A stretch of 54,141 nucleotides of DNA from a virus (Duplodnaviria > Caudoviricetes). Shown one piece after another: positions 25,236 through 28,978 of the stretch (position 1 is the stretch's first letter; the number at the start of each line of letters is the position of its first letter). The notes under the pieces were generated by a model. That model worked only from the letters and a program-made list of their open reading frames with translations. It was not told the origin of the DNA and made no database searches. The stretch spans positions 1 to 54,141 of the IMG/VR virus record IMGVR_UViG_3300035703_000124; one strand, 5' to 3'. Both the position numbers and the translations under genes were made by a program.

Positions 25236-26150
25236 ATGGCATTTGCCGATCTTAAAAAGCAATCTAAACTTGGTTCTCTCACCGAAAAACTGGTGAAAGA
25301 AGTTGAAAAAATGAATAATTCTGGCAGTTCTTCCGACGAACGTGTATGGAAGTTAGACTGTGATAAAAGCGGAAATGGATATGCAGTAATCCGATTCCTT
25401 CCTGCTCCTGATGGTGAAGATCTTCCTTTCGTGAAAGTCTATTCCCATGCATTCCAAGGTCCTGGCGGTTGGTTGATTGATAACTGCCTGACAAGTATCA
25501 ATCAGAAGTGCCCCGTGTGTGAGCACAACTCTGGTCTGTGGAACAATGGAACTGATGCTGGTAAAGAAGTTGCCCGCAAGCAGAAGCGTAAACTGACTTA
25601 TGTGTCCAACATCTATGTGGTGAAGGATCCTGCTAACCCCGAAAATGAGGGTAAGGTTTTCCTCTTCAAGTATGGTAAGAAGATCTTTGATAAGATCACC
25701 GAAGCGATGCAACCCGAATTTGAAGATGAATCTCCGATTGATCCCTTTGACTTCTGGCAAGGTGCCAATTTCAAACTGAAGGCAAAGAACGTTGCTGGTT
25801 ATCGTAACTATGATTCCAGTGAGTTTGCTTCTCAGAGTGCTCTTCTGGACGATGACGATGCACTTGAAGCAATCTGGAAGAAGCAATACTCTCTTGCAGA
25901 TTTCATGTCTCCCAGTGAGTTCAAGACTTATGAGGAACTGAAGAAGCGTCTCAGTTCTGTTCTGGGTGCCAAGAACACTCGTATTGATGAAGAGGTTGAG
26001 GAAGAAGATGATTATCGTGGTTCTTCGAAAGAACTTGATGATGATCTCCGTTCAGAACTCAACAATCTGAAACCCACTCGCCGTGCTGTTGAAGAAGATG
26101 AGGACGATGATGCACTCTCATACTTTGCAAAATTAGCTTCTGACGACTGA
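25236..26150 (+). CDS. gp32: Single-stranded DNA-binding protein
   Basis: GNGYAVIRFLP, HAFQGPGGW, CPVCE, NIYVVKDP, NYD.SEF; acidic C-tail. Confidence 0.95.
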   Translation: MAFADLKKQSKLGSLTEKLVKEVEKMNNSGSSSDERVWKLDCDKSGNGYAVIRFLPAPDGEDLPFVKVYSHAFQGPGGWLIDNCLTSINQKCPVCEHNSGLWNNGTDAGKEVARKQKRKLTYVSNIYVVKDPANPENEGKVFLFKYGKKIFDKITEAMQPEFEDESPIDPFDFWQGANFKLKAKNVAGYRNYDSSEFASQSALLDDDDALEAIWKKQYSLADFMSPSEFKTYEELKKRLSSVLGAKNTRIDEEVEEEDDYRGSSKELDDDLRSELNNLKPTRRAVEEDEDDDALSYFAKLASDD

Positions 26151-26166
26151 TTCTATGCTATAATAT

Positions 26167-26195
26167 GGGGGAGGCAAGGGTCTCCCCCCTTTTTT
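26167..26195 (+). terminator. Intrinsic terminator after gp32
   Basis: GGGGGAGGC-aagg-GTCTCCCCC plus T tract. Confidence 0.75.
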
Positions 26196-26813
26196 ATGAA
26201 GTCTGATTTTTACATTGACCGAATTACGAAGAAGCAGGCAGAGGAACTGCTGCTTAAGTATCATTATCTTAAAGACATTTCAAAGGGATTTAAGTCTGGT
26301 TATAACTACGGTCTCTTTAAGAAGAATGAGTTTTCACCCCTGAATATTGGTGGACCTATTGGAGTTTGTATATTTACTGGACTACCTGTACCAGAAATCG
26401 CAAAAGGAGCATTTGGACTTGAAAGAAATGAACAACAAGGATTATTTGAACTTTCGCGCCTCTGCATCCACCCAGACATCCAATCTGGGGAGCATAATAT
26501 CACTTCTTGGTTTGTTTCAAGATCGATTAGACAGTTACGGAAGGATACTGAAGTTAAAGCAATCATCTCTTACGCTGATAGTGATTTTCATAATGGTACA
26601 ATCTATCGTTCTCTTAATTTTGGTTACTACGGTCTTACAGATGCAAAAAAAGATTTCTACTATCCAGACGGAACTAAACACTCTCGTGGGAAAGTAAAGG
26701 GTATTGATGGTGAATGGAAAGAAAGAAGTAGAAAACATAGGTTTGTTATGGTTTTTGATAAAACCATAAATATATTATGGAAAGAAGAAAAATGGATTAA
26801 TGAACAATTATAG
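26196..26813 (+). CDS. Mom-like (GNAT-fold) DNA modification protein
   Basis: KYHYL, GVCIF, ELSRLC, IISYAD..FHNGTIY, K.R.V. Confidence 0.7.
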   Translation: MKSDFYIDRITKKQAEELLLKYHYLKDISKGFKSGYNYGLFKKNEFSPLNIGGPIGVCIFTGLPVPEIAKGAFGLERNEQQGLFELSRLCIHPDIQSGEHNITSWFVSRSIRQLRKDTEVKAIISYADSDFHNGTIYRSLNFGYYGLTDAKKDFYYPDGTKHSRGKVKGIDGEWKERSRKHRFVMVFDKTINILWKEEKWINEQL

Positions 26814-27347
26814 TAACTTAATAATAACCGAAGGAACTAGGTTTGGAAAATTAGTAGTATTAGAATTAACAGATAAAAGAAATAAATCTGGTAATAGAAT
26901 TTATAAATTAAAATGTGACTGTGGAAACGTATGTGAAAAAACCTCATCAATGCTTAAAAAGAAAAAAGAACCAGTAAGGCACTGTGGTTTAAACTGTTCA
27001 TTGATGGATAGAAAAAAGAAAAAGAAAAAACACGGTCATTCCAATACTCATGAATATTATCTTTGGAAAGGATGCCAAAATAGAGCAAAGAAAAATAACA
27101 TTCCTTTTAATCTTGAATATACTGATGTAGTAATTCCTAAAAAATGTCCTATTTTAGAAATACCTATTTTTAAAGGAAATGAAAGACACGTAGCAAATAG
27201 TCCTTCGTTAGACAGGTTAGTTCCAGAATTAGGTTATGTTAAAGGAAACGTTAGAGTAATAAGTTATAAAGCAAACACTATGAAAAGTGATGCATCTATA
27301 GAAGAAATAAAAATGTTTGCTAAAAATATTATTTTATATTTTGATGA
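26688..27347 (+). mobile_element. Homing endonuclease cassette carrying a replacement 3' end of the mom-like gene
   Basis: Flanked by two versions of the mom-like C-terminus (26688-26780 and 27348-27443). Confidence 0.7.
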
Positions 27348-27408
27348 GGCAAAATTAAAGGTGCTGAAGGAGAGTGGAAAGAACGCTCCCACAAGCACCG
27401 ATATGTGA
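26800..27408 (+). CDS. HNH-type homing endonuclease
   Basis: N-term GTRFGKLVV...CDCG; C-term CPIL, SPSLDRLVPELGYVKGNVRVIS.KAN.MK. Confidence 0.8.
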   Translation: MNNYSNLIITEGTRFGKLVVLELTDKRNKSGNRIYKLKCDCGNVCEKTSSMLKKKKEPVRHCGLNCSLMDRKKKKKKHGHSNTHEYYLWKGCQNRAKKNNIPFNLEYTDVVIPKKCPILEIPIFKGNERHVANSPSLDRLVPELGYVKGNVRVISYKANTMKSDASIEEIKMFAKNIILYFDEAKLKVLKESGKNAPTSTDM

Positions 27409-27443
27409 TGGTTTTTGATAAGAACTTGAAACTCTTATGGTAA
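27348..27443 (+). pseudogene. Orphaned 3' end of the mom-like gene
   Basis: Translates GKIKGAEGEWKERSHKHRYVMVFDKNLKLLW*, versus GKVKGIDGEWKERSRKHRFVMVFDKTINILW in the intact gene. Confidence 0.85.
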
Positions 27444-28082
27444 TGTATTATAAGTATTTTCAGTTCTAATAGTTTGTTGATCAATATATTGAGAAGACTC
27501 ATCATAAAATAATTCTCTTCTCATATCTTTAAGAACAGTTTGAAGATATTGTGGTTTCAAAAGATAGATTAAACTTTTTTTATTATTTTGTATTGTTTCA
27601 TATTCATAGTTACTAATTCCAACTACAGGATTCAATGTTTGTAATGGTGATATTGGATTAGGTATTGTAAAATTTGAATTTACAATTTGACCAGCAGAGA
27701 GTATTAATCTTCCATGATCATCTTTTACTTCAGTTGTTTCGTAGTGATGAATGGCATTTAAATCATTTCCATAAATTCTTTCACAATAACGATATAAGTC
27801 TTTATTTGATAGAGGCCATTGATCTCTTAAATTAGTAATTCCTGCACTTATAACTACTACCCAATCATATTCAACGCTTCCATAAATTTCTTCTGCAACT
27901 AATTCTGGTCGTGTACCATCAATAATAGTGTACTTATTGAAAATCGTAAATACATTTTGTAAGTCATCTCTAATTTTTGCTCTTCTAAAAATATTTTTTA
28001 CAAGAAGATAATCTTGTGATGATTGTTTATCGGAAAGAAATGATTGATACTGAACGTTTGGAAGTTCTCTAAAGTATGTCAT
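27435..28082 (-). CDS. gp53: Baseplate wedge subunit
   Basis: YF..LP, KNIFRR, RPE.VA..IYG...YDWVV, IHHYET. Confidence 0.85.
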   Translation of the reverse strand: MTYFRELPNVQYQSFLSDKQSSQDYLLVKNIFRRAKIRDDLQNVFTIFNKYTIIDGTRPELVAEEIYGSVEYDWVVVISAGITNLRDQWPLSNKDLYRYCERIYGNDLNAIHHYETTEVKDDHGRLILSAGQIVNSNFTIPNPISPLQTLNPVVGISNYEYETIQNNKKSLIYLLKPQYLQTVLKDMRRELFYDESSQYIDQQTIRTENTYNTLP

Positions 28083-28978
28083 TAGTAACCAACTCCTTCT
28101 TTGATATTTTGATAATCTTCTGCATAAATTGGAGAAAGTTCTTGAAACTGAAGAGATAAAATCATATGAACTGGAGTTGCATCATTAAAAGTTGCATATT
28201 GTCCAGATCCCGAGTAATTGACACTCATGTTTGTTAATGCACATGGTTTAAATTTATTCAAAAATGGATGTGCTTTTGCTCCTGTTCGATATTCAATTTG
28301 AAAAACATTTGGAGATTTTACAAAGAAACCACCACCAGTTGCTCCAGTTCCACCTTTTCTGGGCGTCATTTCTTGTTTAAAAGTTCTGATAATAGTTTTT
28401 ATTTCTTCTGCTTCTCCTTGAGATCTTGGTATTAGATCGAATGTAAATTGAAATGCCGTTCTAATGTTTACTCCCTGAAACAGCATTTCAACGTTTTGAT
28501 TTACTACTGCACCAGTTTCTCTTGATATTAATCCAGTTATATTTGCATCTTGTCCAGTAAGTGCCTGAACTGCTAACTTTGAAAATACTGATGATGCAGT
28601 TTTTTGTCCAGTTCCACTGGTAAATGCTCCTTGAAATTTGGAAAATAATTCTTGACCCTTTGAACTGGCACCACCAATAAAATCTCCACTTTCAATAGTT
28701 TCTTTTCCAGCAACAATACCAGCAGCAAGAGCAGCATTTAATGTGTTTTCACCCCAGTTTGCAGAGTTTGAGTCTGCAACAGACTGTGGCATGGGTAATA
28801 TTATAGTTGATTTTGGATTTTGAATACTTCCTTGAAGTGCTTGTTCAGTTGTCCCAAGTGCAAAAGATCCTGCAGAACCAGCAGATAGTCCTGGAGGTTT
28901 ATATTCTATAACTTTAATTTGCAAAAAATCATCATTTTTTCCAATACTAGCTTTTGGGTATCGTAGTATTTGTGCCAT
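28082..28978 (-). CDS. gp48: Baseplate tail-tube cap
   Basis: LRYP, ILPMP, N.EMLFQG...R.FQFTF.L.PRS..EA, L.FQEL. Confidence 0.8.
   Translation of the reverse strand: MAQILRYPKASIGKNDDFLQIKVIEYKPPGLSAGSAGSFALGTTEQALQGSIQNPKSTIILPMPQSVADSNSANWGENTLNAALAAGIVAGKETIESGDFIGGASSKGQELFSKFQGAFTSGTGQKTASSVFSKLAVQALTGQDANITGLISRETGAVVNQNVEMLFQGVNIRTAFQFTFDLIPRSQGEAEEIKTIIRTFKQEMTPRKGGTGATGGGFFVKSPNVFQIEYRTGAKAHPFLNKFKPCALTNMSVNYSGSGQYATFNDATPVHMILSLQFQELSPIYAEDYQNIKEGVGY

Follow-up and report, generated by a model that had tools for sequence, protein, structure and literature searches.

Why should a phage gene possess two 3' ends? The question arises from a 54,141-nt stretch of the IMG/VR record IMGVR_UViG_3300035703_000124 (Duplodnaviria; Caudoviricetes), hereafter the window, in which a mom-like gene closes with an in-frame 3' end, is followed by a nuclease open reading frame (ORF), and is followed once more by a startless version of its own 3' end. 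An initial annotation, made from the letters alone, had proposed that a homing endonuclease gene inserted here, supplied the mom-like gene with a new end and stranded the old one. Sequence comparison assigns the region to a T4-like cyanomyovirus genome, and the interrupted gene to the Mom family, with a predicted role in DNA modification. Specifically, its product matches Pfam Mom (PF25680) over residues 4–167 (E = 9.4e-24; 84.6 bits, above the gathering threshold of 27.1) and PHROG 1384, "Mom-like DNA modification protein", over residues 2–191 (E = 4.6e-32).

Classical intronless homing genes sit between genes or split a gene in two. The element in the window differs from these in that it lies inside a reading frame and supplies a replacement end; its nuclease is from a different family, and its cleavage is predicted. 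The reading we favor, with a probability of roughly 75%, is that of a mobile, free-standing homing-type nuclease cassette with a portable mom end, inserted at codon 164/165 of a T4-like cyanomyovirus mom gene. The foreign tail is in frame, and mom therefore stays complete as a chimera.

Two mom 3' ends of different origin

A Mom-protein scan of IMG/VR returned 488 relatives, of which the best 80 loci were kept for comparison: 69 nuclease-less loci with gp32 and/or gp53 beside mom, one filled locus (L003), and 10 loci in another genomic context. With nuclease-protein scans included, filled loci from all sources number four besides the window (L003, L083, L096, and L097), i.e. five carriers with the window itself. 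The 3' ends were compared over 83 loci in all, and a conservation profile was drawn up on 50 distinct nuclease-less T4-like sequences.

The last 31 codons of mom are present twice in the window. Copy A (26688–26780) is in frame with the gene, and copy B (27348–27440, closed by TAA at 27441–27443) aligns with it codon for codon and free of gaps, with 63 of 93 nucleotides (68%) and 22 of 31 residues identical. At the codon level, 11 are identical, 11 are changed synonymously (including AGA/CGC and AGT/TCC), and 9 change the residue. Copy B shares 88–92% of its nucleotides with the functional 3' ends found in the closest intact homologues (L004, 91.8%; L002, 90.5%; L064, 89.6%), and the duplicate ends are therefore more than a chance resemblance. 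Its stop overlaps that of the convergent gp53 gene by 9 nt (27435–27443), and the same overlap is present in nuclease-less relatives. The nuclease ORF, whose start overlaps the mom stop region by 14 nt, ends inside copy B (at 27408), its residues 183–202 being copy B read in another frame. The initial annotation had described the repeated end, the separate stop overlapping that of gp53, the read-through of the nuclease tail and the many synonymous differences, and all four observations hold.

Beyond the 31 shared codons, copy A carries 10 more (KEEKWINEQL), which overlap the start of the nuclease ORF. The resulting long ...LWKEEKW... tail is typical of another mom lineage. Because the ...WKEEKW... 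extension is native to a long-tail group (the L056/L044 type, whose native mom end reads ...RYLMVFDRQLQKNLTWKEEKWYNNQGDTNQTPSV) and is missing from the listed nuclease-less T4-like tails, copy A is, by sequence comparison, foreign to its present gene and derived from the long-tail lineage. Its nucleotide identity is 98.4% to L096, 95.2% to L003, and 91.7% to L083, and just 64–72% to nuclease-less T4-like 3' ends. In IMG/VR, an exact 23-mer from copy A is confined to two nuclease-bearing contigs. That the insert supplies the C-terminus had been claimed from the start and stands, while the accompanying idea of a recoded C-terminus gives way to one taken from a diverged homologue, as the LWKEEKW tail belongs to another lineage.

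Base composition was also tried as a marker of foreign origin and rejected. Copy A has a GC content of 27.8% and the nuclease body one of 27.3%, compared with 40.8% for the remnant (i.e. copy B with its flanking bases) and 38.6% for the mom 5' part, and gp53 (27.5%) is as AT-rich as the insert.

At 27390–27392 the remnant of the window reads CAC (His, giving RSHKHR), a position at which Arg is encoded in the other listed loci, also in the in-frame tails of the carriers (RSRKHR; in L097, RTRKHR). The remnant of L003 has Ser in place of the invariant Gly165. Both substitutions are first signs of decay, the His of the window pointing to relaxed constraint on its stranded copy.

Empty sites and the boundaries of the insert

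In 68 of the 69 nuclease-less gp32-mom-gp53 relatives, the 3' end of mom resembles copy B more than copy A; the exception (L062) differs by one base. This comparison was the check set by the initial annotation, and the opposing pattern, in which nuclease-less relatives match the 26688 copy, was not found among these loci. Over all 83 loci, 69 are nearer copy B; the other 14 are 3 carriers, L097 (through an indel misalignment), 9 of the 10 long-tail loci of other context, and L062. In the 69 nuclease-less loci mom is uninterrupted and mostly ends in ...LLW, with a stop that overlaps gp53 as the remnant does.

Compared with the nuclease-less L002, L004, and L064, the window loses similarity after 26684 and regains it at 27346. 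A contig of a related nuclease-less phage from sequencing run X7 joins these two positions, skipping 661 nt with one letter between them (one side of the join is just 20 nt), and loose contig ends of nuclease-less alleles fit the window from 27346 on, preceded by mom codons ...TKHS. The net length change caused by the insert is 660 nt. Boundaries are precise to ~3 nt because Arg164 is encoded by CGT or AGA depending on the relative.

The filled allele is also found in run X7, as a 602-nt contig that covers 26774–27375 with no differences from the window. Filled and empty alleles thus coexist in one metagenome as a population polymorphism, and such presence and absence at one precise site among syntenic relatives is as expected of intronless homing. 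At least half of the sampled words of the window are found in 11 public DNA runs, and a fraction of at least 0.46 in 14 runs from 6 studies (two may be source samples). Two metatranscriptome contigs (X15 and X16) cover just 26462–26621 before continuing into another allele, and the insert lies outside their reach.

One cassette in two phage backbones

All five carriers (the window, L096, L003, L083, and L097) have an in-frame ...RKHRFVMVFD(K/E)TINILWKEE(K/Q)W... tail that directly overlaps the nuclease start. Among the three T4-like carriers, identity to the window changes sharply along the locus. Specifically, L096 is 77.9% identical over the mom 5' part (26196–26485), 96.5% over the left flank (26486–26687), 98.4% in copy A, 92.7% in the nuclease, 87.5% in the remnant, and 63.9% in gp53; the corresponding values for L003 are 77.1, 95.5, 95.2, 91.1, 82.4, and 70.0%. 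Cassette and left flank are thus 91–98% identical vs 64–78% for the outer flanks, a pattern that matches co-conversion with marker exclusion. With the nuclease-less L004, L064, and L060, the window shares 92–94% of gp53 nucleotides (L004, 92.3%) and 90–92% of the remnant (L004, 91.8%). It follows from these mosaic identities that the cassette and ~200 nt to its left are common to diverged phages, and that remnant and gp53 belong to each backbone.

The left-flank type (...RSLNFGYYGLTDA...) occurs, among the 83 loci, only in the window, L096, L003, and the nuclease-less L002. The last of these (L002, 4291–4590) is 96.5% identical to window positions 26486–26687 and continues with a native tail from exactly codon 164. 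It may be the founder-type allele in which the first insertion happened, or a recombinant that lost, or never received, the insert.

Carrier L083 has neither gp32 nor gp53, and its empty-site relatives are L056 and L044. The sequence behind its nuclease gene corresponds to codons 189–216 of the L056 mom gene (75 of 82 positions), and that behind the L097 nuclease gene to L056 codons 195–209 (42 of 45 positions). Right junctions therefore fall at codon 164/165 in the T4-like carriers and at codons 189–195 in the L083/L097 backbone. Judged by these alignments, the same cassette entered mom in a second phage lineage, where it stranded a different, shorter remnant. An original home of the cassette, i.e. 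a copy-A-type tail and nuclease gene with no remnant behind them, was not found, and within IMG/VR the copy A 23-mer described above led to nuclease-bearing contigs only.

The nuclease gene of L083 (2986–3541) contains one base more than that of the window and is thereby broken into two ORFs, which may reflect a decaying copy or a sequencing error; its intact form is the 184-aa protein P0010. The native 3' end of the L083 nuclease gene also resembles mom codons 164–168 and L056 codons 189–192. This junction microhomology was judged by eye with no shuffle control, and we do not rely on it.

A PacI-like nuclease candidate that lacks the canonical histidine

The nuclease ORF matches PHROG 3322 ("endonuclease", E = 2.1e-34), 374 ("HNH endonuclease", E = 1.1e-14), and 1035 ("endonuclease VII", E = 3.2e-14). 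A Pfam scan up to E = 10 returned a zinc-ribbon alone (E = 0.087) and no curated HNH or endonuclease VII model, and searches of NCBIfam and of PDB sequences gave no match. Among 317 protein-database matches at E ≤ 0.001, 120 were listed, none of which carries a precomputed Pfam domain, and 63 sequences were aligned. The invariant core of this alignment consists of D138, G145, Y146, N150, S155, A158, N159, and K162. The residue after D138, where HNH enzymes have their first histidine, is R in 50 of 63 sequences, K in 13, and H in none; N150 and N159, invariant in 63 of 63, agree with the central Asn and the third Asn/His of HNH motifs. The motif is therefore written D-R/K...N...N. The gene is AT-rich, as the initial annotation had noted (27.3% GC), and its HNH label is loose given the absence of a Pfam HNH model and the R/K in place of the first His.

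In an AlphaFold2 (AF2) model of the protein (predicted local distance difference test score, pLDDT, 86.2), a small beta-barrel that contains a Cys cluster forms the N-terminal part, and the C-terminal part folds as a strand-strand-helix unit, with strands at 135–139 and 151–155 and a helix from 156. The restriction enzyme PacI is the top Foldseek match of this model, and a weak one (E = 8.3e-3, probability 1.00, 125 columns); Gme HNH scores E = 0.48. In a wide VIA fold search, in which a Z of 8 is the level that the tool calls meaningful and every Z obtained was below 8, PacI reached Z = 5.8 (root-mean-square deviation 6.3 over 101 residues), tied with unrelated proteins, and McrA reached Z = 4.2. 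The N-terminal 60 residues resemble small Tudor/SH3/KOW-like barrels (Z = 4–4.7, which is not diagnostic). Sequence identity to PacI is 13–15%. From the predicted structure, we regard the protein as a candidate PacI-like, histidine-less beta-beta-alpha nuclease that fits a strict definition of HNH enzymes loosely.

Besides the window's own, 12 homologue clusters are at least 69% identical to the nuclease. The window and seven of these clusters (P0001 and P0003–P0008) switch after YFDE to a YFDEAKLKVL...TDM tail, which is the remnant read out of frame, and P0009 ends early at YFNEAK. By contrast with these tails, P0010 (L083 type) ends in YIRGEK, and P0016, a 47%-identical homologue, ends in YIRGEI. 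This ending looks like the natural C-terminus of the nuclease; the right end of the cassette would therefore coincide with the end of the nuclease gene.

Two further clusters have unusual features. The 189-aa P0013 ends in ...KYLQEANCVL, a tail of neither the T4 type nor the L083/L097 type, and may represent a third class of junction. In P0001 (235 aa, from a 916-nt contig) a 33-residue internal tandem repeat is present, with FNLEYSDVIIPKKCPILEIPIFKGNERHVANSP occurring twice, which is possibly an assembly artefact or a real duplication.

Homing weighed against other explanations

The nuclease likely has homing activity. Several points weigh against the homing cassette. The role of the ORF as a nuclease is a prediction from its sequence and modelled fold; as described above, curated families and PDB sequences yield no match, the canonical catalytic histidine is absent, and the structural resemblance to PacI is weak. 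The three T4-like carriers share one right junction, and a single origin followed by spread through ordinary recombination, with no drive by the nuclease, would look the same. Carriers are rare, with 3 contigs (the window counted) vs ~489 IMG/VR mom loci, which is unlike a strong driver at equilibrium, and a remnant-less original home is missing from the material searched. Finally, the most conserved 24-nt stretch of mom (codons 172–180, mean major-allele frequency 0.949, tied with codons 101–108) lies inside the remnant. Being wholly in the remnant, it is therefore not the entire recognition site if carriers are immune.

Could the nuclease gene be passive cargo? Under this explanation, its product is not a site-specific homing enzyme (it might instead be related to repair, packaging, or defence), and the gene moved once with a piece of mom by illegitimate recombination and then spread by ordinary homologous recombination. 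The predicted status of cleavage, the motif without histidine, the single right junction of the three T4-like carriers and the rarity of carriers in general all speak for it. We nonetheless find it unlikely, since the same block of tail and nuclease occurs in a second, unrelated backbone, in the same gene and with a different junction. Moreover, block and left flank are 91–98% identical where the flanks differ by 22–36%, which is the marker-exclusion pattern expected of homing, and in other relatives a further homing-type gene, one bearing a NUMOD3 motif, is found at the gp32-mom-gp53 locus.

Two collinear copies of 31 codons each that remain 68% identical would also result if the 3' end of mom had been tandemly duplicated within this phage lineage, with later divergence and insertion of a nuclease gene between the copies. 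Such a history is already contradicted and very improbable: copy A is highly similar to L096 and to L083 of the other backbone, with far lower identity within its own lineage, and it bears the WKEEKW extension of the long-tail group. Synonymous change at 11 of the 31 codons, including switches within six-fold-degenerate families, also amounts to a divergence far above that of the flanks.

Scarcely any weight attaches to the idea of an intron or intein-like element that is spliced out, joining 26687 and 27348 in RNA. Nuclease genes of this general kind often reside in group I introns of phage genes, and the net length change of 660 nt is a multiple of three. On the other side, an Rfam scan of 25900–27800 at E ≤ 1 matched no intron family (Histone3 alone, E = 0.93, was taken as chance), and the insert opens with 42 in-frame mom-homologous codons ending in a stop, so that splicing would be needless and would throw away a conserved, intact tail. 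The nuclease is a separate ORF with its own start behind a host gene closed by a stop, and the block in L083 has a different right boundary. The intron-less insertion that keeps its target gene intact, as originally suggested, is borne out here, with a gene that is complete without splicing.

A chimeric assembly of two related phages, fused at the duplicated 3' end of mom, is conceivable for a metagenomic source in which related alleles co-occur in the same samples, but it is already contradicted and has a negligible probability. A 1691-nt contig from an independent study (run X4) spans 26519–27700, both junctions included, with one difference and therefore rules it out; the architecture of the window recurs in L096 and L003, which come from other samples; and the junction-specific read-through tail is present in the 7 further protein clusters named above.

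A model for entry and spread

We infer the following course of events for the homing cassette. During co-infection, the nuclease would cut nuclease-less mom alleles at a site spanning codon ~164. The left break end would then invade the homologous mom gene of the carrier and copy the foreign tail and the nuclease gene. At the founding event, homology would have been lacking beyond the nuclease gene, and the new strand would therefore have been joined illegitimately to the right break end. The recipient would thereby retain its own 3' end, the last 31 resident codons lying downstream as a promoterless, startless remnant. From then on, remnant and gp53 could serve as a right homology arm, and homing among gp32-mom-gp53 phages would drag the left flank along. 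The own gene end of each new recipient would become a new remnant, and this would account for remnants that are open and resemble the surrounding backbone.

The start of the remnant would represent the break itself, or a point downstream of it after resection, placing the putative cut at or before codon 164/165. The junction at codons 189–195 in the other backbone could result from the same cut, with ~80 nt of the right end resected. Carriers would be immune because their site is split, both junctions differing from the uninterrupted sequence. Specifically, right of the 26684 boundary, 14 of the first 42 nt of copy A (counting starts at 26688) are changed from the native sequence, and copy A would thus be expected to resist cleavage; the sequence to the left of 27346 is that of the nuclease gene.

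A bolder version goes further than this, and we consider it possible but rather less probable than its negation. Here, the cassette would be a "gene-end replacement" drive, sufficient in itself, whose core is a family of PacI-like homing nucleases that lack the histidine (D-R/K...N...N) and have not been described before. Left-side homology would suffice for its entry, the stranded end of the victim gene would be its self-made right arm, and one foreign Mom C-terminus would have spread over unrelated backbones, with a remnant refreshed at each homing event.

The locus and its neighbours

The features of the locus are collected in Table 1. Three overlapping predictions describe the one hairpin between gp32 and mom (26167–26191), vs 0.5 expected in shuffled sequences, and a promoter scan returned 5 sites vs 5.8 expected, i.e. 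no signal.

Table 1. Coordinates, strand, and supporting evidence for features of the gp32-mom-gp53 locus in the window.
Feature	Coordinates	Strand	Evidence or remark
gp32 single-stranded-DNA-binding protein gene	25236–26150	+	Pfam gp32 PF08804, E = 4.1e-50; upstream of mom in most relatives
Terminator-like hairpin and T-run between gp32 and mom	26167–26188	+	9-pair stem, 7 G-C pairs (consensus scan)
Chimeric mom-like gene, 205 aa: own 5' part and foreign in-frame 3' end	26196–26813	+	Pfam Mom; PHROG 1384
Left flank travelling with the cassette	26486–26684	+	Likely co-conversion tract; identity to carriers
Inserted cassette, 661 nt: foreign mom codons 164–205 and nuclease gene up to ...YFDE	26685–27345	+	Empty-site comparisons
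Copy A: mom 3' end of foreign origin (31 codons shared with the remnant, 10 further codons, stop)	26688–26813	+	
Nuclease ORF, 202 aa	26800–27408	+	PHROG endonuclease families; AF2 model
Copy B, the native mom 3' end left stranded: codon 164 in part, 165–195 in full, stop TAA; startless	27346–27443	+	
gp53 baseplate wedge gene, convergent	27435–28082	-	PHROG 232, E = 7.1e-69; 9-nt overlap with remnant

The nearest named phages to the region are Synechococcus and Prochlorococcus myoviruses, none of which covers the mom-nuclease part; in a GenBank phage blastn search with 25900–28100, none of 67 records reached at least 80% coverage. The nearest GenBank phage is S-SRM01, which matches gp32 and gp53 alone, ~1 kb apart. 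In this phage (MW015081 / NC_070963, 19455–20436), the gp32 end and gp53 lie within ~1 kb and mom is seemingly absent, which points to mom as an accessory gene at the gp32-gp53 junction. The best named phage by tblastn with the Mom protein is Roseobacter phage CRP-212 (53%), which has the long-tail form, not annotated there as a separate gene.

In some relatives that lack the nuclease, the gp32-mom gap is occupied by other genes. One is a 179-aa ORF, found in L064 (1047–1586), L010 (3417–3956), and, broken in two, L060 (3363–3512 and 3540–4004). It starts with ...YYIGKGKGRR..., which we take to be GIY-YIG-like, and contains a NUMOD3 motif (Pfam E = 6.5e-09 and 4.7e-08), and thus appears to be another homing-type gene of this locus. 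In L012 (3344–3997), the gap holds an FkbM-type methyltransferase gene (Pfam PF05050, E = 5.1e-16). Judged from these contents, the gp32-mom gap is a variable slot.

The downstream gene varies as well: gp53 encodes 298–299 aa in L022 (1711–2610), L036 (4580–5476), and L042 (630–1526) vs 215 aa in the window, through an internal insertion of ~84 residues. Residues 73–164 of the Mom-like protein (gene 26196–26810) also match PHROG 559 and 3339 (HNH/homing endonuclease) at profile positions 478–556 of 607 and 408–491 of 536, respectively. Some phage nucleases may thus carry a Mom-like C-terminal domain.

Known systems and significance

An architecture of this kind is already known from fungal mitochondria, where mobile ORFs (mORFs) with a foreign C-terminus were described first in Allomyces macrogynus atp6, and later in Glomus atp6, atp9, cox2, and nad3, Rhizopus atp9, and Mortierella cox2 (passages of PMC3630166). 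By analogy, the phage locus has the same succession of gene core, in-frame foreign C-terminus, endonuclease ORF, and stranded native C-terminus as these passages describe (PMC3630166). The foreign in-frame C-terminal segment stands directly upstream of the endonuclease ORF in 5 of 5 carriers, and the stranded native end is nearer to relatives than the inserted end is (68 of 69). As in the cases described in the same source, the native remnant matches close relatives (here 88–92% in nucleotides), the inserted end is far more diverged (here 68%; Glomus atp6, 63.5%), and no gap separates the host gene from the nuclease ORF, the two overlapping or adjoining (PMC3630166).

There are also differences from mORFs. 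The host is a phage, and in place of a respiratory gene the target is an accessory one for DNA modification. The nuclease is neither LAGLIDADG nor GIY-YIG, it being a candidate for the PacI-like histidine-less beta-beta-alpha type, and its ORF continues into the remnant in another frame. Activity of the Allomyces enzyme has been demonstrated, according to passages of PMC3630166, whereas that of the phage nuclease is predicted.

Free-standing homing endonucleases and intronless homing are established in T4-like phages, cyanophages included, with SegF and with F-CphI of S-PM2 as examples in passages of PMC3037559 and PMC12724721. The window resembles these systems, as described there, in its free-standing nuclease gene, its presence or absence at a fixed site, and the flank that travels along. 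In ICP1-like vibriophages, small genes beside homing-endonuclease genes are fragments of neighbouring essential genes and have been proposed as substrates for later homing (passages of the Barth et al. 2023 preprint, PMC10055350). The remnant in the window would have the same role as a recombination substrate as the fragments of these "HEG islands". The islands differ in their phages and in their nucleases (T5orf172, HNH-3, and IPA-HNH), and the passages concerned describe no paired in-frame replacement end (PMC10055350).

"PacI-like HNH endonucleases" are classed among lactococcal phage nucleases in passages of PMC12724721. PacI, the best if weak structural match of the C-terminal domain of our candidate, is a restriction enzyme and not a mobile gene. 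A full-text literature search, to which supplements that may hold cases were external, returned no phage paper on a paired in-frame replacement end and stranded native end, the passages of PMC10055350 being nearest.

The locus thus offers a clean, population-level phage example, followed here in detail, of a strategy recognized in fungal mitochondria since 1994: by bringing a spare 3' end with it, a selfish nuclease gene can enter a reading frame and leave the host gene whole. It also draws attention to a widespread nuclease family (317 matches) that has no curated model and an atypical active-site motif. The short "orphan" gene fragments that lie by phage nuclease genes would be footprints of insertion points, probably near the cut site, and the predicted target at mom codon ~164 makes the case directly testable. 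For phage biology, the comparison suggests that homing elements can cross between unrelated phage backbones with one-sided homology, and that they can rewrite the C-terminus of an anti-restriction DNA-modification enzyme.

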